Positions 3,356 to 63,609 of a stretch of DNA of 64,000 nucleotides are shown piece after piece. Location: NCBI GenBank assembly GCA_039621445.1, contig CP154954.1, positions 30,260,395 through 30,324,394 of the forward strand. Reading direction: 5' to 3'. Numbering within the stretch: position 1 is the first letter of the stretch; each line of letters starts with the position of its first letter. The DNA comes from Euglena gracilis (lineage: Eukaryota). The translations under genes and the position numbers were made by a program. Under the pieces are notes generated by a model that was given only the letters and a program-made list of their open reading frames with translations, was not told the DNA's origin and ran no database searches.

Positions 3356-4398
3356 CTGAACAGGCGCATGTAAGACCAAGGGGGGAGGGAGGGGGTCCTA
3401 CCAACCCACCCAGCCCAGCGAGGGACCTCCCAAGGGACCCCCCCAAAAAATGGGCTGTAAAAGTGCATTTATTTCCCAAAAAAAATCAGGCAGTTTGAGC
3501 CGAAACCCATCCGCAGGTCTACTTCCCGGACCCCCCCCTCCCGGGGGGAGTGGGGGTCCGGCCCCAGACCCACCCACCCCAGGCAGCAGGTGGGGGTCGG
3601 AACCCCCCATCCGGTCCAGGAGGGGGGTACCTTCATTTGCGGTCCTCAAACACCCATCCAAATTCTTTCAGTATTTGCAGAATTTTATGACAGCCATATG
3701 CGTGTGTCCCGTGCGCACAAATCCGACGGGACACACTGGAACACCTACCCCGGGGATCTTAACGGGAACCTCCAATCAGGTTCCAGTTTGAGGGACATAT
3801 GACCGCGGTCTGGGTGACCGGTTTTCTGGGAGACCGATTTGCCGGGCCGAAAAAGTTGGACCCCCCCAAACGGCCAAAAGTGCCATTTTGGGTACTTTTA
3901 GGGCAAAAACTTGTCAAAAATGCAAAAAAAATCTCGGCACAAGGTGCCTGAAGAAAAATGTTTGTCCTTTTAGGGGTCCCGGGTTCCCCGCCCGGGGGGT
4001 CGGTCCAGACCCCCCTGGCAGGTGGGGGGCGGGGTCGAACCATACAATTTTTTTCCAACCCCCCCCCGGGTCACTTCCACTCTCCCAAAAACCAGCCAGT
4101 CACTTTTTCTTTCTGGAAAACCAGTCAGTCACTGTCAAAACTTGACGAAAAGCACAAAAAAGGCCAATTTTTTCCCAGTGCCTTCGGTTACTTCAATGGT
4201 TTTTTGCAGACCCCCTCCAGGGGGAGGGAGTCCGAAAACCAGTCAGTCACTCTGAAAAAAAAAAAACAGTCGCCCACCCCCCGGGGGGAGGGTCAGCCAG
4301 TGACTGAACGATTGCATGGGCCGAACCCCCCCTCCGGCCAGGAGGGGGGGCACCCCCCACCTAAACCCCGTGCGCCCTCCTTATGTCGAAGCCTGATG
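3356..4398 (-). other. non-conventional intron that is a decayed copy of the CAGGGTTCGATATAAGG MITE
   Basis: catCAGGC...GCCTGttcag|G. 4321-4395 and 3800-4030 are homologous to MITE 19759-20152 in the same orientation. Confidence 0.75.
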
Positions 4399-4465
4399 TT
4401 GGCGCAGTGACCTGGGCGTCTATGCTGGGAGGTAGCTCCTTCTCGAAAGTCAGGTCCTCCTCCTC
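4399..4465 (-). CDS. exon of the SIN1-like gene
   Basis: ctcccacag|GAG acceptor. Reads EEEDLTFEKELPPSIDAQVTAP. Donor A|catCAGGC pairs with GCCTG at the intron 3' end; phase 1 fits. Confidence 0.65.
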
Positions 4466-4540
4466 CTGTGGGAGCAATAAAACACGTGGTACAAATTCTT
4501 GCTGCGAAGGAAAACTTGTGGCAGAGTCATTTTAAAAAAA

Positions 4541-4860
4541 AACAACGACGACGACGACGACGACGACAACAACAACAACAACAACAACAGCAACAACAAC
4601 AACAACAAAAGGAGTAATCACAATGATAATGATGATGATGATGGTGATGATAATGATAATGAAATGATAATGATGATGATCATGATGATGATGATGATGA
4701 CGACGACGACGACGATGATGATGATGATGATGATGACGACGACGACGACGACGACTACAGCGACGACGACGACGACGACGATGGCGACGACGACGACGAC
4801 GACGATGATGGCGACGACGACGACGACGACAACAACAACAACAACAACAACAACAACTAA
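4541..4860. repeat. compound trinucleotide microsatellite (GAC/AAC/GAT)
   Basis: Direct inspection. Confidence 0.95.
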
Positions 4861-7800
4861 TGGTAATAAGAAACAAAAAAGCAAATTGAGAAAAGATGCA
4901 AACAGGATCAGGACGGTCCCTAACCTAAAATTCCTGCCCCAATACGCTTCAACTGAAAAATAAGGATTTTTGACATGCAGGCGTCACTCTTCGTCCACTC
5001 CGCAATGGGAAGTGCCCCCTACGGTGGCAAATAACCTTAATGCTTAGGTTGACAGACTGGCAAGTAATGCATGATTTGCCCTGCTCTGGAAATATCTGGG
5101 CTTGCAGCAGGGGTTTCCTTAAGGATTCCCTTTGGGAGGATTCCAGGCCATACAATTGCTTACCGACCCGGGGGGGGGGGTATGGATTAGTTTGCATGAG
5201 GCTGACACTGTGTCTACAGCAACAATGTGTTTCCACCAAGGCCAACGGAGTTGTCTTGTTCAAGAAGGGAGGTGGCATAGAGCTGGACAATGGGTCAGGC
5301 ACAATTGAGGGGGCTGAGGATCACTAAAGATTGGAACCAATCTCCTTAAACCCTGTGAAACCATTTTCCAGGTACATTCAGTGCTTAAACACAGTGTCCT
5401 GGATTAGGTTCTGTCATTGGTATGTGAAGGTGCCCCCAAATACCTGGTGTGGGGGGTGGGAGTGATGTGCCAGAATCAAATTGTTGAATGCACCTGGGAT
5501 TATGGGCGGCAGTGGAATCCGATAAACACTTCACACAAAAGTTGGAATGAAGCGGAAACCAGTTTCGTCAGGGAGGAAGCGGAATCCCGCTTCCTCCCTG
5601 TGTGGGAAGATTTTGCGCTTTCTCTTTGGAAAGTGGTCCCCTGCTACCCACTGGTGGTAGAGACAGCAGAAATGGGACGTGCAGAGACTGATTAGGCTGC
5701 CTGTGTGTCTCCGTGAGCCTTCTGGGAGTACGGTGAGTGTGCAGTTCACCAAGTCATGTGCGGCTGAGAGTCGTCGGTGGGCCTTGAGGACAAAGACAGC
5801 TCTCCGGAGCCCCTCTCCTGACCAGTAGGCGGAGGTGGGCCATGAACATGGCCTGGGAGGAACAAACGGACGAAACCTCACGGATAAGACCCACCTGCCT
5901 GCGCTTTCGCCAGGGAAGAAAGGACTTGAGAGGGGGTATGGGACACAATTCCACATAGCTGGATATTTTTGGAGGGATTTGCATTGTATCTCAAGTTGAA
6001 AGGGGGCCTGTTTAATGGGGAAATGGCCCAGATTTTTCGCAAAGTCCTATCCGGACCATTTGGGCATGTTCTACGACTCAAGAAGATGCAGGTTCCATCA
6101 CAGCACAAGCTAAGCCTTTGTCCACTCACCAACACCCGAAACTCCATCACATACGGCCTAGGTTGAATTGTGTATGTGCCAGATGAAGGCTGCGGGCTCC
6201 GACTTCATCTCCCCCTTGTTTTCGTGCTCCTTCAGACCACTCAGGCCTTCGAAGTCATGGCCGCGAAAAATTAAAATCGTCCGGAGGAAGCGTGATTCCG
6301 CTTCCTCCTGGCCACTATGAAAATTTCAGGGGGTTTCTGCTGTATGCATTCTCCGAACCAGCGCCTACCCTTCATTTCCGCTGATTGACGTCAAATAAGG
6401 AAGCGGTTTTTGGCAACAATCGCTTCCTCTTCTCTTCTCTGTCCTCGTGAGGCCCCGTTTGGGTCATTTTGGGTTTCGGTGCCTCGGAGTGCAGTAGAAC
6501 TGGGCAGTGACGAAGCGGTTTTTCGCTTCATTTGAAAATTTTGTGCACTTTTTGCCGATTTCGGCTTGCACTCAAAAATTCATACCCCTTTTCGCTCATT
6601 TCAGTCTGCTATAGAGGTTCGTTACTCCAAGCCAAAACTCCGGCAGAAATGGCCCAAATACAGCCTCTTCCAAGAAAAGCTAAAAATTTTGGGGGTTCGG
6701 ACGAAGCGTTTTTCCGCTTCCTCCTCTTCCACTTTCCACAAACAGTCCAAAATTTTTGGGCAATTTTCGCCGCCTAAGTTTGCCCCTTTTTTTCATGTTT
6801 TGGGTCAAATTTCCTTTAAATTCCTGAGTGGCCGACCTCCCCGGGAGGGGAGGGGTAGTGACTGACTGGTTTCCCGAAAAGAAGTGACTGACTGGTTTCT
6901 CGAAAAATGGAGTGACCCCCTCCCCCCCCGGGTCGGTAAAAAAATTGTGTGCCCCCACCAGGCCTTCCCATTCTGCCCTGCCTGGAACAGGCAATTGCTT
7001 AAGCACTGACCGACCCCCCCCCCCGGGGGTGGGTGACTGGCCTACAGTGACCCCCCTAACTAAAGTGGAGTATGTGCCTGGCGGGCGCTTGGTGACCGGC
7101 GTCGTAAACAAGGTAAGTCCCGCCAGGCTCCGGCCACCTCCACGCACACAGACAAAAAGTGCCAGAGGCGAGCAACAGCGCCAGGCCAGAAGAAGGGATA
7201 AAAGGCACCAAAAAAACAGCCACAGTGCACACAGGGGGTGGGTGACTGGTTTTTTCAGAGTGACTGACTGGTTTTTGGCCCGGACCCCACCTGGCAACTT
7301 TCCCTCTCAAAGGAGCCTCAAAACACGGCATCCAGCAACTCACAGCAAAACAGCCCACTCAAAGTCATCACCAACATCCCTGTATTGAAGCCTTTTTGCC
7401 TTGGTTTCCCAATCAGTTCCATGTAAACACACCACCCATCCGCTCTCAGAACCATCCGAGATGGCACCACCACAATCAGCCTGAGTCCAGGCACATTTCA
7501 AGCACAATTCAGGCAGCCACCATTAAGCCGCTGGAGACCTCTCGTGAAGCCATAACTGACCCAGGGGTTGGACAACAGTGGATGGGCACTGAAGTCGTCA
7601 CCAATATCAGTCCCCAATATAAGTGGTATAGGGCGAGAACAGCCATCGCCGAACCTGCTCCCCACATGCAACTACTTTGTCTGGCCCACCCATAGGAAGC
7701 GGAAACACGCTTCCCCTGCCTTGTGCTTTCCAGCAGATGATTGCTGTTATAAGGCTTCTTTTTGTGACAATTTTTTTAATGTGGTTAAGACTTTGGATGA

Positions 7801-8476
7801 TGTCTTATGTTGATGAGGTTGATGCCAGTCTTAAAGGTGCCTACTTCTTGTGATATGCAATGGAGGAAGCGGAAAACTGCTTCCCTATAAAAAGTTTCAC
7901 AGGAAGCGGTAATCCGCTTCCGCTGATGTCAAAATTCAAAAAATATGTACACTTTTAGCTACTTCAAAAAGTTCAGGGGGAAGCGTTTTTTCACTTCCCC
8001 CCAAAAAGGAAGCAGATTCCCGCTTCCCCTCCTACACCATTAAAAAACCTCCAAAACTTTCAAGTCAACTCTGGCACCCAAAAATTTTGGGGGGTTTATT
8101 TGTTGCTATTTTCGGGTTGATTTCCAATGCGCCCAGTCAATTTTTTTTCATGGGCAATTTACGCCGCCTAAGCCAAATAGGGGGTCCGGGCCAAAAACCA
8201 GTCAGTCACTCTGAAAAAAACCAGTCAACCACCTCCCCCCCCCCGGGGGGGTCGACCAGTGACTAAATGATTGACTGGTGGGGGGGTCGACCCCCACCCG
8301 GGAGGTGGGGGGGTGACCCCCCACCCACCACAGATTTTCACCAATTCAGGGAAAACGGGGATTTTAGCCGGGGAAAATTTTTGAAAATTATTTTGAAAAA
8401 TGAACCCCAAATACATGATTTTTTGATGGAAACCCACATTTTTTCCCAAAAAAATCTCAAATTTTAGGGTTGAAAA

Positions 8477-8575
8477 TTATTATTACTATTTAGAAAATTA
8501 TTATTACTATTACTATTACTATTATTATTATTACTATTACTATTTATTTATTATTTATTACTATTATTATTACTT
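8477..8575. repeat. (ATT/ACT)n microsatellite
   Basis: Direct inspection. Confidence 0.9.
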
Positions 8576-9390
8576 TTTAGGAGGGGGGTCAAAAAATGCA
8601 GGTCAAGAAAATGGGACCAAATCTTGGAACATTCGAATTTTACTGAGAGTTTTTATTTTTGGAAATCTTTGGATTTTTGGTGGCATTTTTCGCTTCAATA
8701 ACCTCTCAAAATCAAAATTTTGAGCAATGTTGAAATTTTGGAAGGTGTGAAAAAAATGGGGTTTAGGGGGGTTTTTGGGGGGACCCCCTATACGGGTCCC
8801 AAAATAGGTCAAAAATACACCTAGCGCCGAAGGCGCCGGGAAAATTTTTTGGGATCCAAAAATTGGTGTTACCGGAAATACGGGAAGAGGTGGTGGGGGG
8901 GGGGGTCGACCCACCCACCATGCAGGGGGGGGGGGGGGGTCGACCCCCCAAAATCCAAAAATGGATCCAAAAAAAGATCGCCCAAATCCAACTGGTAGTC
9001 AACGAGCCTTGGAGGCAGGCCCCGACGAGGACAGGTCAGCGAGTACGGGATCAGAGGACAATGAGGGGGGATATAGCATTTTCGGCCCACTTGCCGAAAA
9101 AAATATTTTTCCAAATATTTGTCCGCAATCCTCGGGAAATATGTCGTACTTCAACAAATATGGAAAATGTAAAAAAAGGAACAGATCAGCGGGTCCAAGG
9201 GTAGGAGACCGGTTCCTATGTCCACTTGGCAGGTGTTGAAAAACACCAGTGGTGTAGGGGCCTTTCTGTTATTGGGGGGGGGGAGCGGTCCTTGAGGGGC
9301 CGGTCCTCTCCTTTAAAAAAAAATACCATCCCTTACGGACCGCCCTGAACAGGATAGCAAGGATCGTGCTCTGGCAAGGCTGCAGCGTGC

Positions 9391-9507
9391 CTGGTCGGAG
9401 CCTGCCTCCAGTGCGTCACCATCTGGGTCATTGTTAGGGGACTGCTGGAGCGACGTCTCAGAGAACGTCGCGGAAGAATCCAAATCTTCGGCAGCCCTCC
9501 TCCTTTT
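9391..9507 (-). CDS. probable exon of the SIN1-like gene
   Basis: Reads KRRRAAEDLDSSATFSETSLQQSPNNDPDGDALEAGSDQ. Donor CAG|GCACGC (GC-AG), phase 0. Acceptor is purine-rich and weak. Confidence 0.5.
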
Positions 9508-16800: not shown

Positions 16801-17106
16801 TTTGTGAGTCAGATGCTCCGGTGGTGTTGGGTGTGGTTACTCATGCCCCCCTTCGGGGCTTGGGCATCGTGATTATCGAAGTGAAGAATTCAATTCAAAG
16901 CATGTTACTAGGTGCCTTCGGGGGGGGGGGGGGCAAGCAAAAAGACCTGGTAGTATGTATCAAACAAAGAATCAGTTGCACATTGAAGGAAAAAAAATCA
17001 AAATAAATTGGTGGGAAAGCTCCAATTTCAGTCTTTAGACGATTGAAGCGATTGAAGCGTGCAGGGAGTGCTTGCAGGGAGCTCCGTGGCTAGCTGTGCC
17101 CTGCCT
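13889..17106 (-). other. non-conventional intron
   Basis: aggCAGGGCACAGCTAG...CTAAGCTGCCCTGtgatg|A, phase 0. Confidence 0.7.
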
Positions 17107-17171: not shown

Positions 17172-17276
17172 CTGCCTCCCCAGCCAGGGGATGCTGAAGG
17201 CCCCAAGGGCACCCCCGGCGGGGGGCACCCCCAGGAGGCAAGCTGGCCGGAGGGGGCAAGGGCAAGGGCAAGGCAC

Positions 17277-19758: not shown

Positions 19759-20152
19759 CAGGGTTCGATATAAGGACAGGTGGGGGGGGGTCCGGACCCC
19801 CACCCCTGCGGGCCAGGAGGGGGGGGGGTGGGGGGGGACACCCCCCCACCTAAACAGTGGCGCGGTCCGGGTGACCGAAAAAAATTGACCCCCCAAAACG
19901 ACCAAAAGTGCCATTTTGGGCACTCTTGGGGCAAAAATTTGCAAAAAAAATGCAAAAAATTTTCGGCGCAAAGCGCCGGAGGAAAAAATTGACCCTTTTT
20001 GGGGGGTCCCGGGTACCCCCCCCAGGGTCGGTCCGGACCCCCCTGGCAGGTGGGGGGGGGGGGGTCCGGACCCCCCTGCGGGCCAGGAGGGGGGGGGGGG
20101 TGGGGGACACCCCCCACCTAAACCATGTACGCCCTCCTTATATCAAACCCTG
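19759..20152. mobile_element. hAT-like MITE, family A (TIR CAGGGTTCGATATAAGG)
   Basis: TIRs cagggttcgatataagga / tccttatatcaaaccctg; flanked by G runs, so the TSD is uninformative. Confidence 0.85.
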
Positions 20153-30245: not shown

Positions 30246-30412
<167 letters not shown>

Positions 30413-45990: not shown

Positions 45991-46438
45991 CAGGCTTTTG
46001 CTTAAGGGCCCCGGGGGGGGGGGGGTGCTGGCTAGCCAATCGGCTAGACACTGGAAAAAGTGGACTAGCTAGACCCCCCCTCCCCCCACTAGGGGGGGGG
46101 GGGTCCGGGGGTCCCCTGGACTGGGAATTTTTTTTTCCTCCAGCGCACAGCGCCGGAGGAAAAATGAGGTTTTTAACAGGTTTTTGGCTGATTTTGTTCC
46201 AAAAATTCCCCAAAATGGCCAAAATGGGCATTTTTGGCCATTTTTGGGGGGTCCCAAAAAAAATTTTGGCGCTTCGCGCCGGTCACTGGAAAATTTTTTT
46301 CCACTAGCTAGCCCTGCTAGCAGACCCCCTCCGGGGGGGGGTCTGCTAGAAAACCCACTAGCCAAATTTGGACTAGCTGCAGTCCAGCCCCCCCCGGGGG
46401 GGGGGGGGGGGTACTGCAATCCCTTAAGCAAAAGCCTG
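45991..46438. mobile_element. hAT-like MITE (TIR CAGGCTTTTGCTTAAGGG), 8-bp TSD
   Basis: Perfect 18-bp TIR; TSD GTCAAAGC at 45983-45990 and 46439-46446. Confidence 0.9.
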
Positions 46439-49569: not shown

Positions 49570-49757
49570 TTCGTTTAAACGAAGTCAAAAAAAAACACGT
49601 TTTTTGGCCGTGCCAACCCCCCCTTCAAAAATCGGCCAAAAACCGGCGCCGAAAGCGCCGGGAAAAAAGTTTTAAGGCCTTTTTTTGGGTCTAAAAGGCC
49701 ATTTTTGGTGTCAAATTTTCATCTGTCTGGGGGGGGGGGGGTCCCGAAAATCCCAAC

Positions 49758-51015: not shown

Positions 51016-51289
51016 ATTTTGTTTCGTGATCTGATTCCGCTTTTTCACAAAAAAACGGGGGCGCCTTCAGCGCCCCCGGTTTTTTGGTGAAAAAGCGGGA
51101 TCAGATCACGAAACACTTTACAGTACAGGGGGGGAGGGGGGGGTCCCCCAAAAACCCCAACTGTACTGCCGTCTCCCCATTGGGCGCACGTAGATCGGAA
51201 GGTTGCAGAGCGTGCCTGTACGTACCTCCAACATCCCAGTAAAAATCCGCATTGCCAGAGCCACCTCCACCACCTGCGCGCACTCGTCT

Positions 51290-51610
51290 TGTAGCCTGAA
51301 ATGAAGAAAGTGTCGACAAGGAGCGCCTTCTCAACCGGGTCGAAACTCTTGTCGGACACAGTGCCATCTCCGAGGCATGTCGTGCCACATGGAAAACTGT
51401 GCTGATGGCGCGACCACTTCGCCCATCAGCACTACTCTCCGGGGATGTGCAACCAAATCCAGGCCCGGCAACAAGCAGCAATGCCGTTCCACAAGCAGCA
51501 CCCCTCCACCGCGCCTGCCCTTTCTTCCTCAGTTGCACATTTCAAACCTTTGATGAAGCAGCCATGCAACATCATGTTGATCGGATTCACGTATCCAGAG
51601 CGCAAATTCC
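51290..51610 (+). mobile_element. non-LTR retroelement fragment with 2A-like peptide and C2H2 zinc finger
   Basis: LLSGDVQPNPGP (51432-51467), then CPFFLSCTFQTFDEAAMQHHVDRIH. Confidence 0.6.
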
Positions 51611-51629
51611 GAAGAGACTTTGGCCGATT

Positions 51630-52034
51630 GCCATCCTGCCATGTGGCCAGCAGCAGGTCGGCGGGCCGTAGAGAGGTATTTGGCTGATTGGGTACCGGAA
51701 CCTCACGCTGGACACTTTGGCTGTTTGTGGACAAGAGGTTGAATGAAGCGTCCTGGACGGCGTTGTGTTTGTTGGCAAAATTATTCCGGATGCAGCACAT
51801 CTCGTGGTCACCGTGGACGTCAGTGACGCTCTGGCATCCTGCGCACGTGCCGCTTAAGTCTGCCAGAGGCAGCCCCAACCACCATTTCAGCCCGATGCGG
51901 TAGTCTTCAGCATCAATCGTCGTGTGGAGGGCCTCGTGGGGTGCCACTGCCATCCATCCATGACCGACACCATGGGCCTGTTCCATCAGGCGGGCCTGGT
52001 CTCTCGGCAAGGTTCGGTTTAGCAGGCCGTCCAC
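51630..52034 (-). mobile_element. CRE-clade (RLE) non-LTR retrotransposon C-terminal fragment
   Basis: WMAVAP..LKWWLGLPL..CAGC..DVHGDHEMCC..KHNAVQD..REV..LRPADLLL: CCHC knuckle plus PD-(D/E)xK endonuclease pattern. Confidence 0.85.
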
Positions 52035-54270
52035 CGTGGCACGTGATATCTAGGTCTGCCACCACTGCTGTGACGTGTGGTATCAAGAGGCGGAAGCGAA
52101 GGAAGCAGGTGTGAGCAATCGTTGGCTCTCGGGGTGTTGAGTCCAAGTGCGGACACCCCACCACCCAACTACGCGAATATGCTGAAATCTTGGCGCGATG
52201 CATTGCATTTTCCTAACTCTCTTCATCAGACCAGACCAGACGCGCGCCGCCAAAACATTATATATTCGGCAGCACTTCGTTCCCCTGCGTCATATGTTCA
52301 ACGTGAGCCGTTCGTTCCCCTTTCGCTATCTTGCTGACTACCAACAGCACAGGGGGGCAGGAAATTTTCCCTTGTGGCGGCCAACAAAGATGTCCAGCAG
52401 GATGCAACAATTGTGTATTTCAGCTGTGAGCCTCGTGGGAGCCAGCCAGCACCTTTTTCCAAGGCAGAATGCTGGTCGAAATCCCCAGAACACCTTCAAA
52501 AACACCATTTTCAGCGATCCGCATCAAAAAATTTTCGGTTAAGCCTGGCTTCACCAGGATGGCCCCAACTTTGGTGCTGTTTTTAAGATGTCAGGCTAAA
52601 GTGGGCCTAAATTTCGGCCTACTTCTAACCCAACTCCTTCAACAACCCTAAACTTTCCACTTAGAAAAACAGTACCCTCAGTCTGAATAAAACTTTCTTT
52701 GGCTTTTTTTTGCCCCTTCGAGGCAGGCATCATACCACTGTGCCAAAAAATACCTTTGAACTGTCATGAGCCCGATCTCCGAGGACTTCAACTTCGATGT
52801 CGCAGTCTTTTCGATGGCAGAGTCCTTTGTGTGGAAGTATTTCGAGAAAGATCATACTGGGCGTGTATTTTTTGAGGTTGCTTTTTGTGTGTGTGTTTTT
52901 TTTGAATTTATAACAATCTTTTTTTCAAAAAAAAAAGTCCACGAGGGTTTGGAGGGAAGGAAGAATTACTGACCGCCCATGTTGGTCAATCACCTCTTGG
53001 GCAACAGGCCAAAACAAAGAGAATCCTCTGGCCCAGGGAATGAGTGTGCCATCTTTTGTGTCTAGTGCCTTTGTTTGCAACCTGACCTTGAAAAATTTTA
53101 TGTTACACCTAACACCTGAGATTTTAACACTTCACACCTCTAATTTTGTACTTTCGGTCAATTTTTTTTGCACTTTATCTCAAGAATGTTTGCACATGCC
53201 AACAATTTGTCTGCACTTTATCTCAAAAATGTTTGCACTGAATCCCAAAAATATTTGCGTCCGTTCCGAAAATTTTTGCGCTCGGATCGGGTGTTTTGCA
53301 CAGTTGTCCTTTGAAACTCCAATCGAAATGGATCTTTTTCCATAAAATGACGGAGGGCAAATTTTTCCGAAACAAGTGCAAACATTTTTGGGATGCAGTG
53401 CAAAAATTTTTGAGGCCTTTGGGCAATTTTTTTAGGGCGCTGGGCAAAATTTTGACAGGTCGTGGGCAAACATTTCAGACGCTAGGTGTAGTGATATTTG
53501 TTTGAAGCCCCCCCCCCCCCCGAATGTTCTGTGTGTTCGTTCGAAGGTCCGCAATGGAATATTCGAGGCAGCCTCACCACTGGACCCCTCCTTTTTCCTT
53601 ACCCTCACCCCCCCCCCCATTTGGCTGATGGCCGGGCTCCCCTTTGGACCCACCTAACCAATTGGGGGGGGGGCATTTTGGCTCGTGCAAGCAACGACAT
53701 TGGGGGGCGCTTGGGAGCTTGGAAAATGGAAAAGGTGCTGGCTGGACCGGGGGGGGGGGGTAGGGGTGTGGTACTGGTGGCTGGCCCAAGTGATATGCAA
53801 AACCTGGCAGCCCATGTTTTGACGAGGCACATTTTTTGTTGGCCAAAAAAATACAGACAAATTTGAATGATGTCAAAGAAAACGTGTGCCCCCCCCCCCG
53901 CTTCCTGAACCACCCCCATGGTCAAATGTCATTTTTGCATGGTTGGCCCCCATGTATGGTTGGCCAACACCCCCTCCCAAATTGATGGACCTTCCCTACA
54001 ACATTGTAATTGAAAGTACCCCCAGGTTCCTTTTTAAGGCTCCAGGTCGCCCCACCCAAAGTCGGGACGCATTAGGGTATTTCAAAAAAAAATTCTTCAC
54101 AGCTTCGCCCCAAAATTGAAACCGCCTCATATTACCCTCACCCCCTGGGCGATTCCCTTATTCTGGTTCTCATCGTGTTTCACCGCAGTTACAGGTATCT
54201 GGGCTCCTCCAAGTGGTATTTAAAACAGTTATTTCTTTGTTTGGCGTAGAATGGCAGGACTCTCACAATA

Positions 54271-54284
54271 ATTTTGTTTTTCAG
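54271..54284 (+). promoter_or_regulatory. polypyrimidine tract and AG splice acceptor 8 nt before the UGDH ATG (SL trans-splice or 5'UTR cis acceptor)
   Basis: attttgtttttcag|ggcacaaaATG. Confidence 0.55.
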
Positions 54285-54292
54285 GGCACAAA

Positions 54293-54379
54293 ATGGCTGA
54301 CTTCAAAGTGAAGATTTTGTGCATTGGCGCTGGGTACGTTGGTGGTCCAACGATGGCAGTCATCGCTTTCAAATGTCCC
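54293..54379 (+). CDS. UGDH: UDP-glucose 6-dehydrogenase, coding exon 1
   Basis: Reads MADFKVKILCIGAGYVGGPTMAVIAFKCP, with the NAD-binding GAGYVG motif and GPT..VIA.KCP typical of eukaryotic UGDH. Confidence 0.95.
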
Positions 54380-57300
54380 TGACAGGGTTTCACATCCCAG
54401 CAAAGACAGGAGGAGACCGTGACTTGGGGGTTGGGTGAAGAAACCCCTGGTTTTGGTCTCGAGATGGGACCACTGCAAGTTCAGCCTCCCCGGATGGCCT
54501 GGCGAAGCTGGATTGAATATTTTTTGAAAAAAAGAGTGAGAATGGCATGGCAATTTGAGGGATTTCGGTTTTAAGCTTTCAGTTCCAAATTTTTGGCGGA
54601 AAAATTCCAACCCACTGGATTCGGGCCCCGGGCGGATATTGGCCATGCTTGCTCTGGAGGTTGGGCCGACCTAGGTCGGCACGGCCCAACCATGCTGTTA
54701 TCGACCTCTGGAGGTCGACAGAAATGGCCACTGCACCGCATTACCTCCCCCCCTTTTCAAAGAACTGGTCGGCCCGACCTGTTGCAGTTGCCGACCATAT
54801 GGTCGGCCTGACCAATTGGAGGTCGGGCCGACCATATGGTCGGTAGAAATGACCTCAATGGTTTTCCTTTTCAAAAGCATCCATCCAAACCCTTGGCCAA
54901 ACCCCGGAACATAAGAAGGCCATTTTCGCATATACCCTCACCCCCCCTAATTGCCCCCCCCCCCCCAATTGGCTAATTGAGGGTCCCGTTGGACGGTCCA
55001 TTAGCCAATTTGGGGGGGGGGTCGGGCTTATTGCCCATTGGCCGGGGTTATCCCCCCCTAATTGTCCCCCCCCTAATTGGCTACCACACCCCCCCTTATT
55101 TGCCCCCCCCCCCTTAATTGAGCATTTGGGTCCGGGGAGGAAATTTTTTTAGGCGCCGAAGGCGCCGAAAAAAATTTTTGCCCTCTCGCAAAGCCAAATT
55201 TTCGACCCCCCCCCTTATTTGAGCATTTGGGGGGTCCCTTAGCCCGTGGGTGTGCTCAAATAAGGGGGGGGTAATTGGGGGTCCGAAGGAGCCCGGCCAT
55301 TAGCCAAATAGGGGGGGTGAGGGTACCCATAAGCTAGGGGGCATTGCAAAACAATTCCTGGTGGCGTTAACCCGTGGCCAAAAAGAATTTCTGACGTTAT
55401 TTGAAGGGTTATATGAGTTGGGTTAGGGTTATGATTCTTATGCAAACAGCAGAACATTTCCTGCTCAACGTTGTTAGATTGGTCTCTACAAGGTTCCCAG
55501 CAATCCCAAAGAGCCGCCCAACTTGGGTTAAAAACATGGGGGGACCTGAGCGAGGCGCCAGCAAGGGTCCCCCCATGTGCATTAACCCCAGTTGGGCGGC
55601 TCTTTGGGGTAGCTGGTACCGTGTAGGAGCCAATTTATCCCGTTTCTGAACAGCCGGCTGCAGCCCTCAAAAAATTTTCAGGCTTCAAAAAGAGGCACTT
55701 GCCAATGGAGCCCTGGATTCGGGCTTTCTTGCCTGTTTTCGAGGTGCCAGCCCGGTTCAGCTGCCAGTAGACCCCTTTTCCAGCCAGCACCTTTTTTCCC
55801 CTAGCGGTAACCCCCCCAGGGTCTTTAAGGAAACCCCTGGACTGAACCATTATTTCCAGAGTGGAAGTGTTGATTTTTGAGTCATTTTGGTCCCGGTGGC
55901 CAGAGACCGACCCTGGAGGGGTTGGGGAGTTGGGTGATTGGTTTTCCAGATCCCCCCCCCCCGGGGGGTGTTGCTGAGCAACGGTATAATTCTGATTAAG
56001 GATGTCAAGAATAAAACAACCTGTTTTTGAAACCGTGTTTGGGCCGATTTCGAGACTTTAAAAGTCTTAAATCTTCGCCCAAAACACGGTTTCAAACAAG
56101 AACAGTGTTTTGGGCCAAGGTTTTAGGAGGGCCCAGGGGCGACCACGGCGCCTTCGGCGCCGCGGTCCCCGCCCCTGGGCTCCCCCTAACTCTTGGCCCA
56201 AACACAGTTCTTGCCACAGTACCCGCCCCCCCCCCCCTTGTCCCCTTGTCCACCGACCACCCCTACATACCGACCACCCCCCGGTCGGGGGTTGCAGGTT
56301 GGGGGGGGGTGTACGACCACCCCCCGGTCGGGGGTTGCAGGTGACCACCAAAATGTTTTTACCTCTCATGTGCTTGTCGACCAGCTTTTTTCCCGTGTTT
56401 CCTGTCCATTGAGTGTTCCTCGTGTTCCCTCCGGGGAGTCCTGTTTTGTTTGAGCATAGCACCTCTGTTGTTGCTATGGTTATTGGTCCCTTACCTCATG
56501 GGGAGAAATATTACCGTTATGAAATTGCACCTTTTTTTGGCTTTTGGTTTTGTTTTGGCCCTAGTGGTACGACCACCCCCGGTCGGGGGTTGCAGGTTGG
56601 GGGGGGGTGTACGACCACCCCCCGGTCGGGGGTCGTAGGAACCCGGCCGTTGGACAAGGGGGGGGGGGGCGGGTACAACAAGGCAATGGTTTTGCCAAAT
56701 AAAAGTTTCATGCATGCTTTTTTGTTGGTTTTGGGGGGTTAAACATGTTTCTCAGTCTGAAGTGTTTGTTTTGAACAACATCTTTGGCCCTGACCCCCAA
56801 GGGTGCATGGAGAGAGCCAGGGTGGTCTATACGGGACGGGATTTTTCTTTTTTTTTCCTGTTCAGGACGGCCCTGAAGCCCTCAGGCCTAAGAGTCTGTC
56901 TGCCAAGGGCAGAACTGGGGGGCGTGAACCGGGTCGGGAGGAGCCCAGGTAACCGCGGTGTAACCGCAGTGAGAGCAAGAGCAAAGGTATCAGTATCAGT
57001 CCAATGCTTCATGACAAGGGGGTTGGAGGGGGGGGAAGCCCCCCCCCCCAAATGAGACCTGGGATTTTTTGGGTCCGTTACTTGAAAACTGCAGGGGTTC
57101 TTATTTTTGGGGGATCTTATTTTTGGATTTTTTTTGACCAACCTGGACCCAAAGACATCATTTTCCAGGTTCCCAAAAAAACCAAAAGTTTTCCTTCGGC
57201 GCTTCGCGATACGCGTAAATTGGTTCAATTCATCTTTTAGCCTGTTTTTGGAACTCAAATATCCCAAATTGTTGACAGGTGGAATCCAAACCAAGATCAT

Positions 57301-57649
57301 CGTGTGAATTGAAAGAGAATTTTGACCTCCATTACCTTGCGGTTACACCGCGGTGTGACCGCGGTGCAACCGCGGTGATAACCGCGGTGTGGGCTCCTCC
57401 TCAAAAACAAAAAGGTCGAAACATGCATTTTCGACCTTTTGGGTGGATGGGCGATAGTCCAAGGATGCCGGAAATCACATTTTCTGCCGAATTCGAGCCG
57501 CTTTTGCCAAAATTTGGCTCTTTTTTGCCCATTCTTCCTCTGGGGTTTCATTGAATGTGCTGGGACAGCAGATTTATTTTATTCTTTTTATCTTCCCCCT
57601 GGGGAGAGCACAGGAGGTAACAGTTCGTCTCATCGGAAGCCCTGTGACA
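54380..57649 (+). other. non-conventional intron (UGDH intron 1)
   Basis: tgaCAGGGTTTC...GAAGCCCTGtgaca|G, with CAG at +4..+6 and CTG at -8..-6 and a terminal helix of about 10 bp. Joins CCC|GAT (KCP-DVKV). Confidence 0.9.
54935..55323. mobile_element. MITE CCCTCACCCCCCCTA...TAGGGGGGGTGAGGG with TA TSD
   Basis: TIRs flanked by TA; partial copies near 53600 and 54133. Confidence 0.7.
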
Positions 57650-57837
57650 GATGTCAAGGTTACCATCCATGATATCAATCAGGCGCGGATTGATGCCTGG
57701 AACTCAGACCAACTTCCAATCTATGAACCGGGACTGGAGGAGATTGTAAAGCAGCAGCGTGGCAAGAACCTTTTCTTCACCACCAGCTTCGATGAGGAAC
57801 TCCAAGAAGCGGACATTGTGTTTATGTCTGTGAACAC
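57650..57837 (+). CDS. UGDH: UDP-glucose 6-dehydrogenase, exon 2
   Basis: Reads DVKVTIHDINQARIDAWNSDQLPIYEPGLEEIVKQQRGKNLFFTTSFDEELQEADIVFMSVN(T). Confidence 0.95.
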
Positions 57838-59042
57838 ATTCAGGGAGTGGCATTAAAGGGAGAAGAATGCTGGAATGATTGTGAAAGAAGTGTGACTAAC
57901 CCCCCCCCCCGATGGTGGAGGGTGGTGTGGGCTTTTTGGGAATCCCCCCACAAGTCACACGGAGAGTCGGCAGGGGGGTTTGGGGTGGTGTACATGCCAC
58001 TGGGACGGTGTTGCCAACAGGTAAATGCCGCTGTGTAAACCCTGTCAGGTGCATGTGCATGATGGTGTGTGTGTGTGGCAAACCCCGAACTGCCCCAAGA
58101 GAACGCTGGAACAAAGAACAACTGAACAGTGTTTCTTCCAGTCTGGCCGAATACAGACAAGCTGTGGGCAACCACATTTTGGTGAAAAGACTCCGATGGG
58201 TGGTGGTGGTATTGCAATTTTCTCTCTCGGTAGGGTCAAGGGTAAGCTTCTATAAAGGCCCCAAAAATTAAAAAGAAATTGCAAAAAAAAATTGTAAAGA
58301 AAATGGTGGCCTGGATGAGATGATGATTCAAAAAAGAACCTGGATTCTGGGATGGAAAGCTGCAAAATATTATGGTGTGGGACAGTGGGATCTGCCTACA
58401 AGCCTCAGGTAACCAAAAGTCAGGATTACATTTTCTGGGACCCAAGAAATCACATACCCCCTTCCCCCCTTGTCCAAGACACAGCGTGTCGTTGACACCC
58501 CCCTGTCAATGACTCTTTTCTGGAGCACATTTTTTCTCTTGTATTTTTTTTTAAGGATATTCAGCCAAGTCATTTGAAAATTGTGTCACATCTGCTTGCC
58601 ATTTCTTTATTTGTTTTTCCCTATGAATTTGGTGATTTGGTGCAATATGAGGGGTCAAATGGTGCAATTTGTGGAGGACATGGTCATTGGGCCATCAAAA
58701 AGTTCGTTGTCATTGTCCGTGCTGTTGACAGAGCTTGTCGTTGACATCCCCCCATGTCAACAGCAACAGCAACAGCTTTCCTGGTGCGTGCCTTGGCCAA
58801 GGGGAGGGGAGGTGGGTACCTTGTGAAAATGGCTGAAGGCCATGCCGCAGGCAACAGCCCTTCATTGAAGAGAGCACCATCAGAGACCATGGCAGATTAA
58901 CGGTCCCCCACTAGGGGGCGCCAATTTTTGCAATGGGTCGAAAATTAAGCAGTCAAAAAACGCATTTTCTCAGACCACAATTTTAGAGAAAGTTGGTCGA
59001 TTTTGGGGAGCAATTTCAGGCATACTTGGACCATTGCCCATC

Positions 59043-59963
59043 CAAGGCTGGTAATTTTTTGATTGATCTTGCATTTGGGGGGGGTGCGATATTTTGCGAG
59101 ATATTGCACCGTCTTGCGATATTGGCGATATTTCCGATATTTGCGATGTTATTGCTGATATTGCAATATATTGCGGTTATTTTTTAAGCTCCCCCCCCCC
59201 CGGAAAAATGTTAGTCACAACCTTGGCCAGCGGAATTCAGCCTTTCGCCATTCACCCTAATACAGAACCCTCCAAAACAGTAAGTGCCCTCGGTTACTGG
59301 AATTTCCAGTGCCTCATTGATGACACCCCAAGATTCCTCTACAATGGGATCCACCACAATGTCATCTTCATTGTCAGAGTCAACTAAAATCTGACCTTCA
59401 AACAGCTGCCCTGATTTTTGGAACGCTGACGTTGTCACAGGCACGGTTGACAGTGAAAAAAGAACGGAGCAAAATTTGTCAAATGCCCTGCGGGGAGGTC
59501 TGAGGGCAACCGCGCGGGCGGTGTTCGGCCCAAAGGGTGTGTTGGGGTTGCGGGGGGGGGGGTCGGGGGAGGAACGGGGTTTGCGTCATGCGTGACTTGT
59601 GTGACGTCATTCTTTCCTCTAATTTTAGAACCCAATCAGGAATTTGCGTGCCATTTGGGTCCAAAAATAGGTCCAATTAGGAATTTGGGACAAATTATTC
59701 ATACTTTTGATTCCTAACTGAGTGGCAAATTCCTAGTTAATCCGAATTTTTTGTACTTTTCTTTGAATCCAGAATCGGGTTCAGAGAGGGGTCGGGGGGG
59801 GGGGCGGGGGGGGGGCGCGGAGGAAACGCCCAAAATGGGGATTTTCAGGAGAAGGGCAAAAAAAGAGGGGGTGCGATATTTTTGCGAGATATTGCACCCC
59901 TTGGCGATATTTTCGATATTTGCGATATTTGCGATACTGTGCGATATCCAATTACCAGCCTTG
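59043..59963. mobile_element. TIR element CAAGGCTGGTAATT...AATTACCAGCCTTG, apparent 7-bp TSD
   Basis: 14-bp perfect TIR; flanks GCCCATC / CCCCATC; subterminal GCGATAT repeats at both ends. Confidence 0.8.
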
Positions 59964-60044
59964 CCCCATCCACCCATCCAGGTGCGCCGACCCCGCCCCC
60001 GACATTTTGAGGAGAGGGTGAGGAGGAGATACATGGGTGCAACC

Positions 60045-60577
60045 CAGGGTTCAATATAAGGAGGGCGTATATGGTTTAGGTGGGGGTTGTGTCCCCCTCC
60101 ACCCCCCCCCCTCCTGGCCCGCGGGGGGGGGGGGTCCGGACCACCCCCCCCCCACCTGCAAGGGGGGTCCAGACCGACCCTCGGGGGGTACCCGGGACCA
60201 GGGTTCGATATAAGGAGGGCGTACATGGTTTTGGTGGGGGGGTGCCCCCCCCCCCCCCCCCCCTCCTGGCCCGCAGGGGGGGGTCCGGACCCCCCCCCCC
60301 CCACCTGTCCTTATATCGAACCCTGCCCGGGACCCCCCCCCCAAAAAGGGTCAATTTTTTCCTCCGGCGCTTTGCATTTTTTTGCATTTTTGGCCAATTT
60401 TTGCCCAAAAAGTGCCCAAAATGGCACTTTTGGTCGTTTTGGGGGGTCAAAAATTTTTCGGTCACCCTGACCGCGCCACTGTTTAGGTGGGGGGGTGTCC
60501 CCTCCCCCACCCCCCCCCCTCCTGGCCTGCAGGGGGGGTCCGGACCACCCCCCCTCCTTTCCTTATATCGAACCCTG
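60045..60577. mobile_element. hAT-like MITE, family A, 8-bp TSD
   Basis: TSD GTGCAACC at 60037-60044 and 60578-60585; CAG...CTG termini. Confidence 0.9.
60199..60325. mobile_element. 127-bp family A MITE nested in another family A copy
   Basis: TIR cagggttcgatataagga / tccttatatcgaaccctg; TSD CCCGGGAC at 60191-60198 and 60326-60333. Confidence 0.9.
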
Positions 60578-60948
60578 GTGCAACCTCATGGAAACCTCTG
60601 GACTGATTATGCATATTATGCACTGAACAAACACTATGCACTGTTTTCTTCAAATTTAAGGTTTAATTTCTTTAAATTAAGGTTCACCTTTTTCATTTTA
60701 AACTGTAGCTTTGGTACAAATATTGAAATTTCATTTCACGCCGCTCATGGAGGTGGTCACCCCTGCATGTTCCTCCAACAACTGTGGGCAAACCAAATCC
60801 CAAAAAAGAAAATGAAAAAATGGCATATGAACCAGAGAACAGAAAAAGCACAAAAACCGAAAAAAAATCAAAAATCAAAATCAATATTCATGCATACAAT
60901 CTTGGGCATTGGTGAAATTTGTGCAGCAGAAAGTTGGTGGATTCCTGC

Positions 60949-61210
60949 CAGGCTTCTGTTTGTTTTGGAAAGTTGCACCCCCCGGGGGGTTGTGGGCCGG
61001 CAGGAGGGTAGGGCACCTTCAACCCCCCCCCCCCGTGAGCCGGTTTCGGGGTGGGTAGTGCTAAAATGGCCGTTTTCAAGGGGAATTTGCCTGTGTCAGC
61101 AGGCACCACGTGCCGAAACCGACCCCCCCCCTGGGGTGGGGGGGGTGCTGCCGTGGACAGCAGGCACCATAGCACAAGGCACCCCCCCGGGGTTGGTAAA
61201 AAGAAGCCTG
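60949..61210. mobile_element. hAT-like MITE (TIR CAGGCTTCT), 8-bp TSD
   Basis: TSD ATTCCTGC / ATCCCTGC (7/8) at 60941-60948 and 61211-61218. Confidence 0.8.
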
Positions 61211-61222
61211 ATCCCTGCTCAC

Positions 61223-61303
61223 ACCCACCAAGTTGCATGGGATTGGCAAAGGGCGAGCGGCAGATCTTAAGTACATTGAAGGTGCTGCCCGTCGTATTGC
61301 AAC
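61223..61303 (+). CDS. UGDH: UDP-glucose 6-dehydrogenase, exon 3
   Basis: Reads (T)[26 protein letters not shown], completing the SVNTPTK and GxAADL motifs. 3' boundary uncertain by a few nt. Confidence 0.9.
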
Positions 61304-63283
61304 GATCAAGGATGGTTCAGCCACACAGTGTGGCGACCTGGAATTGATCCTGGTCTGAAGTGGATCCATTTTTTAAACAAGCAAGTGACCAAATTTGCAC
61401 ACCCTCTTTGCATGAAACCCTGGGGGTCTACATTGTCCAAATATTTACTGGCCCCCAACGATTGTGTTGACCTTCCAGCTTTTCAAAAAACATGTTTTTT
61501 GAACCTTGAAAAAGAAAAGTGTAAAATGTCGTGTTTTTGAAAAAATTCTTTTTTCTTTTTTAAAAAAAACCGAAGTGTGGCACGCAGCTTCGCTTGTCCA
61601 ACCCCCCCCCCGGGATTTAAAAATTCTCCTTTTTTACCTCTGACCCCCCCCCCGGGAAACTGTTACCCACCTCCGTATTTGCTGACAGTTTCCCGGGGAG
61701 GGGTAGATGCCCAAGAGGTTATTATTTTTTATATTTTTTTCCTCCAGTGCTTTGCAGAGTGTATTTTAGAATTTTAGACATATTTTGCACAGCATTGCCC
61801 CAAGCCGCACGTTTGACCAATTGGGGCAGGGGATTCTTTCCCCTGGTGGTACGCTATATGCCTGACAAAATCGGTAACTCTTTTCAAGAGGGGAGGTAAG
61901 CTTGGAAGGACACCAGGGGTTTTTTTTAGTTGTGGACCCCCGGTGGGTCCGGCCGGGCCCCCCCCCCCCCCCAGGGGGTCCCCCCAGAGGGGGGGGGGAT
62001 ATACTTTTTGGCGCCAAAAATATTTGAAAAGGTGCTATTTTTAGCACTTTTCGCGATTTTTCGACCATTTTTTTTGTGGGTCCCCCAGGACCCCCCCAGG
62101 GGATGGGTGGGTGGGGGGACCCCCGTCCCCCCCCCCCCCCGGTCTTAAATAAATCAAGAGCGGGAGAGGGTTGGGTGGGTGGGGGCCATACCATTGCCAA
62201 GCACGTCGACCCCCCCCCCATTCCCTGCATGGTGGGTGGGGGGGTCGACCACCCCCCCCCACCCTCTGCATGGTGGGTGGGGGGGGGGTCGACCACCCCC
62301 CCCCCACCACCTCTTCCCGTGTTTCCGGGAGCACCAATTTTTGGACCCGAAAAAAATTTTCCGGCGCCGGGTGTTTTTTTGACCCGTTTTGGGACCCATA
62401 TAGGGGGTCCCCCCCAAAAAACACCCAAAAACCGCATTTTTTCACACCTTCCAAAAATTCAACATTTTCTCAAAATGTTGATTTTGAGAGGTTTTTGAAG
62501 CAAAAAAATGCCATTGAAAGTCCAAAAAATTTCAACGAGAAAAAATGGCAGTAAAATTTGACTGTGCCAAAATTTTGTCCACTTTTTTTGACCTTCGTTT
62601 TTTTCACCCCCCTCCTAAAAACTACCAATTTTTAACCCTGAAATTTTTGATATTTTTTTGTGAAAAAAATGTGGGTTTCCATCAAAAAATCATGTGTTTT
62701 GGGTTCATTTTTCAAAAAAAAATTCAAAAATCTTCCCGGCCAATATCCCCTTTTTCCTGAAATCGGTGAAAATGCTGTGGTGGGTGGGGGGGGTCGACCC
62801 CCCCCACCTCCCGGGTGGGGGGGTCGACCACCCCCCCCCCCCCACCAGGCCTTCCCGTTCTGCCCTGGGGGGGTTGTCAGGATTGGCCGACGTGGCCACC
62901 TGGCGCCAAAGGCGCCGGATTTTTTTTTTTTGACCAAAAATGTTTTGATTTTTGGCCAATTTTGGCCGAGTAGCCAAAGTGACCAACCCCCTCCCCCAGG
63001 AAGGAGGTGGGAAGTGGGTGACTGGTTTTTGAAAAGTGACTGATTGGTTTTTTGAAAGTGGAAAGTAAGTAAGGGGGTCGGTAAACAATGGTATGGTCCG
63101 GTCCCTTATGTGGGGGGGGGTGTCCCTGCGGAAGCTTGGGCATGGGTTCCGGAGAGAAGCACCAGAAAAAATTGGGCAAGGCGGTCCCCTGCTGGGCTGG
63201 GTGGGGGGTCTTTAAAAGAAGCCGGGGGAGCACAATTGGTCGGCAATCCATGGCCCCTCTGAAGATTAAATCCTCCTTGCAAG
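61304..63283 (+). other. non-conventional intron, CAAGG...CCTTG variant (UGDH intron 3)
   Basis: gatCAAGGA...TCCTTGcaag|G; 1980 nt, restores frame. Exact junction can slide because TTGCAA is repeated at both ends. Confidence 0.65.
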
Positions 63284-63380
63284 GACTGTGAAGTCTGGCA
63301 ACAAGGTGGTTGTGGAGAAGTCCACAGTGCCTGTTCGCTGCAGCGTTGCCATTGAGCGAGTCTTGAAGGCATGCAGTGCT
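63284..63380 (+). CDS. UGDH: UDP-glucose 6-dehydrogenase, exon 4; gene continues past the window
   Basis: Reads TVKSGNKVVVEKSTVPVRCSVAIERVLKACSA with the conserved EKSTVPV motif; followed by an N3-CAG donor (gatCAGGG). Confidence 0.9.
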
Positions 63381-63609
63381 GATCAGGGTTTGACGTAAGG
63401 AGGTCGACCGCGCACCGTTTCGAACAATTGCCTTTTGTAACGATCCCCCCACTTTGCACCTATTGCATGCAAGAAGCTCTGGGAGTGTGGAAGCTGAGTC
63501 ACATGAAAATGAAATGCGAGTGGATGGACCGCTTCTAAGCAGAGGAGGGCACCATAAGGAACCTCCATGACTTTTCTTTTGATGATTGCCTCAAAAAACC
63601 CCTATCTGC

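Follow-up and report, generated by a model that had tools for sequence, protein, structure and literature searches.

MITEs with CAG...CTG ends and 8-bp target-site duplications as a plausible source of nonconventional introns in Euglena gracilis

Gene structures and intron borders

The window analyzed here, a 64,000-nucleotide stretch of Euglena gracilis DNA, encodes UGDH on the plus strand and a SIN1-like product on the minus strand, and contains members of two MITE families. RNA reads (X22, X23) and contigs (X5, X13) were aligned to positions 44001–64000, with 15 of the 304 joints listed, and support the following UGDH structure:

54285..54379, plus strand: exon 1, from leader-bearing reads and translation; spliced-leader acceptor AG at 54283–54284, ATG at 54293
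54380..57649, plus strand: intron 1, nonconventional, TGA-CAG...CTG-TGACA; RNA joint 54379 to 57650
57650..57837, plus strand: exon 2; Pfam PF03721 (E 2.5e-18), RNA joints
57838..61222, plus strand: intron 2, nonconventional, ATT-CAG...CTG-CTCAC, sliding over CACA; RNA joint 57834 to 61220
61223..61303, plus strand: exon 3; RNA joints
61304..63283, plus strand: intron 3, variant nonconventional, no CAG/CTG; RNA joint 61303 to 63284
63284..63380 (end may slide to 63382), plus strand: exon 4; RNA loose ends at 63382
63381..64000, plus strand: start of intron 4, GAT then CAGGGTTTGACGTAAGGAGG (63384–63403); RNA and terminus comparison

The UGDH mRNA carries a spliced leader: reads start at 54277 with leader letters, including two leader-tail mismatches at 54282–54283, and the presence of this leader identifies the window as euglenid nuclear DNA. 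The joint of intron 1 is fixed to the letter (X22, 516 reads; X23, 560 reads; X5 and X13, one contig each) and gives an exact N3-CAG...CTG-N5 structure in RNA; its TG..CA borders make it non-GT/C-AG, and its junction repeat extends to just 1/8. Intron 2, whose joint can slide by four letters (210 and 218 reads, and one contig each), is compatible with the same structure inside its sliding range, and has AT..AC borders in the N3/N5 register. The joint of intron 3 has two slidable letters (222 and 255 reads); here a CAAGGA/TCCTTG stem puts CAA/TTG in place of CAG/CTG, with spacers of 3+4 (or 2+5), and an imperfect 9-nt direct repeat, TTGCAA(C/G)GA (8/9), lies in a register that differs from the predicted one. 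A homology-based guess of 61323–63293 for this intron, with N3-CAG...CTG-N5 borders, is ruled out by the RNA joint. Loose ends at 63382 (335 and 369 reads, two contigs) indicate that exon 4 ends at 63380–63382; the 3' end of intron 4 lies beyond the window edge, and exon 5 begins GAC as against the GAT of intron 4, or 2/3 of the predicted repeat. The first bases of exons 2–5 are G, A, G, and G (or C after sliding), in keeping with an acceptor-exon purine. Terminal stem pairing, counted by hand, is 10/14 for intron 1, a weak 6/12 for intron 2, and 6+3 for intron 3. Piles of RNA reads at 46992, 59794–59815, and 60244–60263 were rejected as poly-G/poly-C read artefacts.

The SIN1-like gene lies outside the RNA-covered region, and its intron borders were placed by homology to a relative of 71–96% identity; a protein search at near length recovered no SIN1 product from the same locus. 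Its relevant features are:

2884..3256, minus strand: intron 3, GGA-CAGGGCG...CGCCGTG-GCAGC; homology
3330..4417, minus strand: intron 2, GCC-CAGGTCACTG...CAGTGCCCTG-TCGGA; tblastn with P0001 and junction enumeration
3847..4395, minus strand: truncated family A MITE copy within intron 2; terminus and copy matches

The earlier note had proposed four introns with N3-CAG...CTG-N5 borders, of which two are the RNA-supported UGDH introns 1 (exact) and 2 (compatible). The third, at 3356–4398, is probably wrong, as the transcript-derived homologue P0001 fits 3330–4417 better (alignment score 176 vs. 156); the 3356–4398 version would add 15 residues missing from both P0001 and P0002. The better-supported intron also fits N3-CAG...CTG-N5, with 9/10 stem pairs. 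The fourth, at 13889–17106, has no gene support; it falls outside the SIN1 gene, and the ORFs scanned there had no Pfam match. A motif common to the end of SIN1-like intron 2 and the borders of 13889–17106, CAGGGCAC, is weakly enriched (7 occurrences vs. 2.85 expected, a count attained in 3 of 100 shuffles). SIN1-like intron 3 fits the CAG/CTG pattern in part, with CAG paired to GTG, and the 8 nt before CAG (GCTGCGGA) and the 8 nt after GTG (GCAGCGGG) agree at 6/8 positions in the predicted register, for which binomial arithmetic gives a chance of ~0.004. SIN1-like exons 3 and 4 both begin with the purine G.

MITEs and their possible superfamily

Five MITEs in the window bear target-site duplications (TSDs), exact over 8 bp in four and 7/8 in the fifth. 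Four of the five have CAG...CTG ends, and the remaining one has a CAT left end. These elements, and a sixth with homopolymeric flanks, are as follows (no strand assigned):

1286..1599: family B-like MITE, left CAT..., right ...CTG, exact TSD CCTGGGAT; in a conventional SIN1 intron
19759..20152: 394-bp family A MITE, G8 flanks; terminus and pair scan
45991..46438: family B MITE (CAGGCTTTTGCTTAAGG...), exact 8-bp TSD GTCAAAGC
60045..60577: family A MITE, exact 8-bp TSD GTGCAACC (60037–60044, 60578–60585)
60199..60325: 127-bp family A MITE nested in 60045–60577, exact TSD CCCGGGAC
60949..61210: 262-bp CAG...CTG MITE, TSD ATTCCTGC/ATCCCTGC (7/8); pair scan and RNA

The coordinates and exact 8-bp TSDs that the earlier note had given for three young MITEs (45991–46438, 60045–60577, and 60199–60325) are confirmed; the TSD of 19759–20152 is uninformative because its flanks are G8. 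Inverted repeats are ~20 bp and start CAGGG or CAGGC. A scan of the window for CAG...CTG pairs whose inverted repeats agree at 10/12 positions or more returned 153 pairs, with flanks identical at 8/8 positions in four (one of them G8), 7/8 in one, 6/8 in two, and at most 5/8 in 146. The family A terminus occurs eight times in the window at no more than three mismatches, as compared with zero expected. Five metagenome loci that match this terminus were rejected as chance, since in all of them TAAGGAGG is followed by ATG within 10 nt and can be read as a bacterial ribosome-binding site. As RNA, the 127-nt MITE at 60199–60325 is predicted to fold into a hairpin with a CAG:CTG pair (−93.6 kcal/mol, z −4.5). 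RNA contigs diverge at 46440, beside the family B MITE.

CAG-type ends are typical of hAT elements, and the MITEs described here resemble Ac/Ds-type non-autonomous hAT elements in their 8-bp TSDs (four exact and informative, one 7/8), short terminal inverted repeats (TIRs) with ends of the CAG/TAG type, small size, and nesting. CA and TG are inverted rather than direct, and so belong to the element and not to the TSD. However, 8-bp TSDs are not exclusive to hAT, and the hAT target preference nTnnnnAn is not clearly evident in a sample of five TSDs (T at position 2 in three, A at position 7 in two). Pfam identified no transposase domain in the 245 ORFs of at least 100 aa, nor in the 150 of 291 shorter ORFs scanned (those from 9.5–33 kb), which gave no Pfam match of any kind. 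It is quite possible, if not what we would expect, that a non-hAT superfamily with 8-bp TSDs (e.g., Merlin or P) mobilizes these MITEs, which would change the label and not the mechanism. From the E. gracilis assembly, two families of Merlin elements that make 8-bp TSDs are reported, Merlin TSDs being 8–9 bp in length; Merlin ends, however, begin with GG, and the elements here have CAGG...CCTG (PMC8101967).

Intron ends compared with MITE ends

The clearest correspondence between an intron and a MITE is at UGDH intron 4, where CAGGGTTTGACGTAAGGAGG is identical to the family A terminus at 17 of 20 positions; because RNA places the end of exon 4 at 63380–63382, this family A-like terminus lies at +4 of the intron. 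It ranks eighth among the 1986 CAG-starting words, with only family A ends above it. Compared in the same way with the family A terminus, the other eight supported intron ends rank 71 to 1216 of 1986 and show little or no similarity to MITE termini beyond that expected by chance, leaving one clear MITE end in nine. The earlier note had taken intron ends to be MITE ends on two examples, and the second of these probably fails: the family A terminus at 4376–4395 is genuine, but it lies 22 nt inside the better-supported intron, 3330–4417. As homologues favor these borders, the fragment at 3847–4395 probably sits within the intron and not at its end; one of its termini is missing, and it includes a 283-bp unrelated stretch (4035–4317), deduced from the interval that separates two matches. 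The outer 300 nt of UGDH introns 1–3 have no family copies, or short internal matches only, elsewhere in the window.

Junction repeats of 4/8 carry no evidential weight, as they are equally present in three conventional introns. Introners are expected to be many near-identical copies that themselves form introns, each with a TSD for which splicing compensates; here, one intron end matches a MITE family, and one intron retains, in register, a TSD at 6/8. Across the 64 kb, no complete MITE was seen serving as an intron, nor was any MITE with flanking TSDs seen within an exon, or seen spliced out among the 15 of 304 RNA joints listed. Those 15 joints likewise include no back-joints at intron ends, such as circular intron RNA would give. 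All young MITEs here lie within introns or between genes. One of them, at 60949–61210, inserted into the CTG motif of UGDH intron 2, where the CTG now used (61215–61217) comes from the right TSD copy of this element.

Discussion

The introns described above are closest in kind to the nonconventional introns of euglenids (Milanowski model), for which Nomura et al. (2025) give the code 5'-N3CDG-/-CH'GN5-6|R. UGDH introns 1, 2, and 4 (5' end) and SIN1-like introns 2 and 3 resemble that code in having CAG at +4..+6 and CTG or GTG at −8..−6; they share with euglenid nonconventional introns terminal pairing and non-GT/AG borders, and the removal of the UGDH introns is seen in RNA reads. UGDH intron 3 falls outside the code. 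No new kind of intron is involved; the addition is that the same DNA holds recognizable MITE families with 8-bp TSDs and one intron end that shows homology to a MITE terminus. Earlier publications already contain the N3/N5 code, the idea of a MITE origin, and the finding of an 8-nt repeat where an intron was newly gained; the link between 3+5 and 8, that is, between the spacers and the TSD length, was not found in the published literature. The code and its sufficiency in synthetic introns are taken from print: given no more than spacers of 3 and 5 nt, CAG/CTG, terminal pairing, and an acceptor-exon purine, wholly synthetic introns of 50 bp are spliced after knock-in to an exon of E. gracilis (PMC12501133). 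In the same study a 3' spacer of 6 nt is tolerated, the code fits only 61.2% of nonconventional introns, and 69.1% of them are slidable (PMC12501133).

Taken together with this code, the MITEs suggest a route by which introns could arise. Non-autonomous DNA transposons of families A and B, mostly with CAG...CTG ends and inverted repeats of ~20 bp, duplicate 8 bp of target on insertion. The non-spliceosomal machinery of Euglena reads a terminal stem based on CAG:CTG and cuts 3 nt ahead of this stem and 5 nt beyond it, such that a MITE landing in an exon would be a ready-made nonconventional intron. Excision of 3 nt, the element, and 5 nt would remove the element along with one TSD copy and restore the original mRNA, provided that the transcript strand has a purine at TSD position 6. 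Some nonconventional introns, at least, may have been born in this way, later losing recognizable ends and TSDs. The MITEs have all the cis features that the published code calls for (CAG/CTG, long terminal pairing, and 3+5 equal to an 8-bp TSD), so that their precise removal from RNA, along with one TSD copy, is a sound prediction. The arithmetic advanced in the earlier note holds, although one of its two pairings of an intron end with a MITE end probably does not, and the idea that such transposons seed new introns is plausible, testable, and partly supported. We lean, by a small measure, toward the reading that MITEs insert as ready-made nonconventional introns and have seeded at least some of those present.

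The same geometry could have the opposite history, in which an old 3/5 stem machinery and its introns came first and fitting MITEs survived in genes as mimics; most nonconventional introns would then not descend from MITEs, and MITEs would not have shaped the machinery. The eight of nine intron ends that are not recognizable as MITE ends agree with this account, as do the limited fit of the published code and the existence of variants like UGDH intron 3. In diplonemids, too, noncanonical introns bearing inverted repeats are reported (PMC12621601). Nevertheless, lineage-specific nonconventional introns are still arising, including a strain-specific gapC intron of E. agilis whose junctions carry 8-nt direct repeats (PMC4770533), and one intron supported by RNA has a family A terminus at precisely +4. 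We regard the opposite history as unlikely. Less likely still is coincidence, in which ordinary transposons litter introns, CAG/CTG reflects the need for a stem, repeats reflect double-strand-break repair (proposed by the authors reporting the gapC repeat), and the family A end at UGDH intron 4 marks an insertion at the border of a pre-existing intron. The MITE at 60949–61210 shows that insertion at an intron's own motif happens, and both the intronic or intergenic position of young MITEs and junction repeats no higher than in conventional introns fit with coincidence; however, the chance of CAG landing exactly at +4 is about one per intron length, and three independent accidents (the terminal trinucleotides, the long terminal stem, and the equality of 3+5 with TSD length) would be needed.

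Seeding of introns by MITEs would place Euglena alongside the introners of Micromonas, Aureococcus, dinoflagellates, and Amoebophrya, in which DNA transposons with TIRs and TSDs become introns and the TSD likewise helps to define what is removed (PMC11282704, PMC7789003). Introners of the first three groups use the spliceosome, and the repeats of Amoebophrya are 3–5 nt; the Euglena case differs in a 3/5 rule measured from a stem, which agrees with an 8-bp TSD, and in needing no splice site in element or target apart from one purine.

A further and more doubtful extension, which we put forward tentatively, is that non-spliceosomal splicing in Euglena reverses, in the RNA, the insertion of a single class of DNA transposon, the 3/5 offsets mirroring a hAT-like 8-bp staggered cut. 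If TSD length explains the geometry, then the N3/N5 code, the 8-nt repeat at a new intron, and frequent junction repeats, along with the Y|R pattern reported for both junctions of nonconventional introns, would share one cause. Every exonic insertion would be instantly silent and become an intron, and co-adaptation, possibly involving a transposon-derived component of the machinery, would account for the ~70% nonconventional introns of Euglena. Introns in this lineage could then be born from transposons without need of a spliceosome.

MITEs and their target-site duplications

The transposons in the window are real: a 20-nt terminus of MITE family A is present in eight copies at three or fewer mismatches, against zero expected. 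A survey of CAG...CTG pairs separated by 40-4000 bp and carrying inverted repeats that match at 10/12 or better returned 153 pairs, whose 8-nt flanks match at 8/8 (n=4), 7/8 (n=1), 6/8 (n=2), or at most 5/8 (n=146). Elements with target-site duplications (TSDs) and the remaining pair at 8/8 are as follows.

45991-46438: MITE, flanks 8/8, TSD GTCAAAGC
60045-60577: MITE, flanks 8/8, TSD GTGCAACC
60199-60325: MITE nested in 60045-60577, flanks 8/8, TSD CCCGGGAC
19759-20152: CAG...CTG pair, flanks 8/8 but G8, uninformative
60949-61210: MITE of 262 bp, flanks 7/8, TSD ATTCCTGC/ATCCCTGC (60941-61218 with TSDs)
1286-1599: family B-like element, exact 8-bp TSD

The 8-bp TSDs that an earlier note had described for the first three MITEs are exact at all three, and repeat lengths other than exactly 8 fail to match there. 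A scan ignoring terminal letters recovered no further convincing element class; its other matches came from low-complexity DNA or from larger inverted repeats with palindromic flanks. Fold prediction for the 127-nt MITE as RNA gives a hairpin with CAG:CTG at its base (-93.6 kcal/mol, z -4.5). A large inverted repeat at 41955-44548 has arms holding CCCTAGGG-type palindromic units ~2.3-2.6 kb apart, and its ORFs returned no Pfam match. Over the MITE-rich stretches 46002-47335, 60009-60675, and 62010-62676, RNA contigs have a word depth of 293-1080, at least that of the UGDH mRNA contig (271 and 612); MITE-family sequence is therefore abundant in transcriptome assemblies, reflecting many loci or stable excised RNA in runs that are only presumed to be RNA.

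PMC12501133 gives the nonconventional intron code as 5'-N3CDG-/-CH'GN5-6|R, with a 5' spacer of exactly 3 nt required and a 3' spacer optimum of 5 nt. The code is met by 61.2% of nonconventional introns, 69.1% are slidable, and fully artificial 50-bp introns with 12 bp of pairing were spliced out of an E. gracilis exon. The same paper calls intron origin unclear and suggests MITE-like elements. In other papers, a MITE origin is proposed (PMC3935182), TSD-like repeats are mentioned (PMC11282704), and Y|R is described at both junctions, along with a new strain-specific gapC intron that has eight-nucleotide direct repeats and for which break repair is invoked (PMC4770533). E. gracilis Merlin elements also have 8-bp TSDs, but end in GG (PMC8101967). 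Neither a hAT assignment of the present MITEs nor a link between 3+5 and the TSD of CAG...CTG MITEs was found in a search of openly available article text.

Introns of the UGDH gene

The window is euglenid nuclear DNA. UDPG_MGDP_dh_N at 57458-57853 is the sole Pfam domain over the curated cut-off among 245 stop-to-stop ORFs of at least 100 aa; neither these nor 150 of the 291 ORFs of 55-99 aa left after filtering contained a transposase domain. Positions 44001-64000 were compared with reads from two raw RNA runs and with two sets of contigs. UGDH reads start at 54277 and are preceded by extra letters TTTCTGAGTGTCTATT, which match the Euglena gracilis spliced leader, joined at AG 54283-54284 (region 54277-54295); the 5' UTR before the ATG is only 8 nt. 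Exon positions 57661, 61268, and 63326 carry an alternative letter in 30-70% of RNA reads, pointing to expression of two alleles or of gene copies that are nearly identical.

54380-57649, plus strand: intron 1, RNA joint 54379->57650, no sliding, 516 and 560 reads; TGA-CAG...CTG-TGACA
57838-61222, plus strand: intron 2, RNA joint 57834->61220, 4 slidable letters
61304-63283, plus strand: intron 3, RNA joint 61303->63284, 2 slidable letters
63380-63382, plus strand: end of exon 4 (5' end of intron 4), loose ends at 63382 in 335 and 369 reads and two contigs, continuing CACCTCTGCCACATTTGAAG...

The borders proposed for intron 1 agree exactly with its RNA joint; those proposed for intron 2 fit the N3/N5 spacers and are allowed by its joint, but as only one of several readings. 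Within intron 2, the 262-bp MITE is inserted in the CTG motif, which its TSD duplicated, and the copy now placed 5 nt from the 3' border that RNA defines is the right-hand one.

Borders of intron 3 guessed from homology were overruled by the RNA joint. Its stem is CAAGGA/TCCTTG, with spacers of 3+4 (or 2+5) and CAA/TTG in place of CAG/CTG. An 8/9 direct repeat, TTGCAA(C/G)GA, at 61297-61305 and 63277-63285 overlaps the 3' stem, and its single mismatch places the cut after the seventh repeat letter, not the fifth. Neither the TSD model nor the code in print accommodates such a geometry.

From the loose ends, intron 4 begins GAT, then CAGGGTTTGACGTAAGGAGG, so that the family A-like terminus claimed for this intron starts at +4 from an RNA-anchored exon end. 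The terminus shares 17/20 identity with that of family A; among the 1986 words of the window that start with CAG it is eighth, with only family A ends ranking higher. Similarity of the intron to family A does not extend past these 20 nt; its 3' end lies beyond the window.

Introns of the SIN1-like gene

1-9492, minus strand: SIN1-like (TORC2 subunit) gene; three of its introns are conventional (GC-AG or GT-AG), two nonconventional
3330-4417, minus strand: intron 2 (outer borders), from homology; GCC-CAGGTCACTG...CAGTGCCCTG-TCGGA, 9/10 stem

Six exons were recovered at 71-96% identity (local tblastn), and ORF 2564-2932 is 90% identical to the homologue P0001 (476 aa, transcript-derived, Pfam PF16979 and PF16978). 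The first, conventional intron contains ~400 bp of trinucleotide-type low-complexity sequence (4535-4960), which in more than one frame encodes long runs of D/N/T/M or V/I/H/R, hence weak sub-threshold Pfam hits.

Between exons 2 and 3, every in-frame border pair was enumerated and scored against P0001. The intron previously placed at 3356-4398, with a family A terminus at +4, scores 156 and adds 15 residues missing from P0001 and from a second homologue, P0002; a score of 176 is shared by several shorter products, among which only 3330-4417 obeys N3-CAG...CTG-N5. The terminal stem of 3356-4398 is only 5 bp, as compared with 9/10 for 3330-4417. Homology thus favors 3330-4417, and the most likely position of the family A terminus (4376-4395) is 22 nt within the intron rather than at its border; the other end of this family A copy is missing. 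Another intron proposed earlier, 13889-17106, falls outside the SIN1-like gene and has no protein match in its support. Its chosen border coincides with the right end of a CAG...CTG pair at 16533-17103, which has 11/12 inverted repeats (CAGGGCACACCT/CAGGGCACAGCT) and no TSD (2/8).

P0002, which appears to have been read from genomic DNA, is continuous across the sites of introns 2 and 3 and so lacks both nonconventional introns. It diverges past RVAE, the site of a GT-AG intron in the window, and seems to share that one conventional intron. The comparison agrees with published work, in which conventional introns are conserved and nonconventional ones lineage-specific.

Candidate TSD remnants and the proposed origin of introns

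If introns arose from such insertions, their two junctions are predicted to be identical over positions -5 to +3; matches in this register were scored for each intron.

UGDH intron 1, nonconventional: 1/8
UGDH intron 2, nonconventional: 4/8
SIN1-like intron 2 (outer borders), nonconventional: 4/8
SIN1-like intron 3, nonconventional: 6/8 (GCTGCGGA vs GCAGCGGG)
Three conventional SIN1-like introns: 4/8 each

Because conventional introns also reach 4/8, that value carries no meaning. The expected 8-nt junction repeat is therefore approached by SIN1-like intron 3 alone (6/8; ~0.004 by chance, binomial arithmetic), whose 3' motif is GTG, not CTG. The proposal that intron ends are MITE ends holds clearly for one of nine supported ends, that of UGDH intron 4; the other eight are not recognizable, ranking 71 to 1216 of 1986 against the family A terminus.

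The arithmetic behind the proposal stands: the TSD length of the MITEs equals the summed spacers (3+5=8), and the elements meet all published cis requirements. It follows, near-deductively, that an exonic MITE insertion is predicted to be precisely reversed at the RNA level. Such reversal would additionally require a purine at TSD position 6, present in 8 of 10 element-orientation cases (five TSDs, counted by hand). Three observations support MITE insertion as having made Euglena introns: the RNA-anchored end of UGDH intron 4, the 6/8 match at SIN1-like intron 3, and the 8-nt repeat described in print for a new gapC intron. Most intron ends in the window are not recognizable MITE ends, and one UGDH intron breaks the rule.
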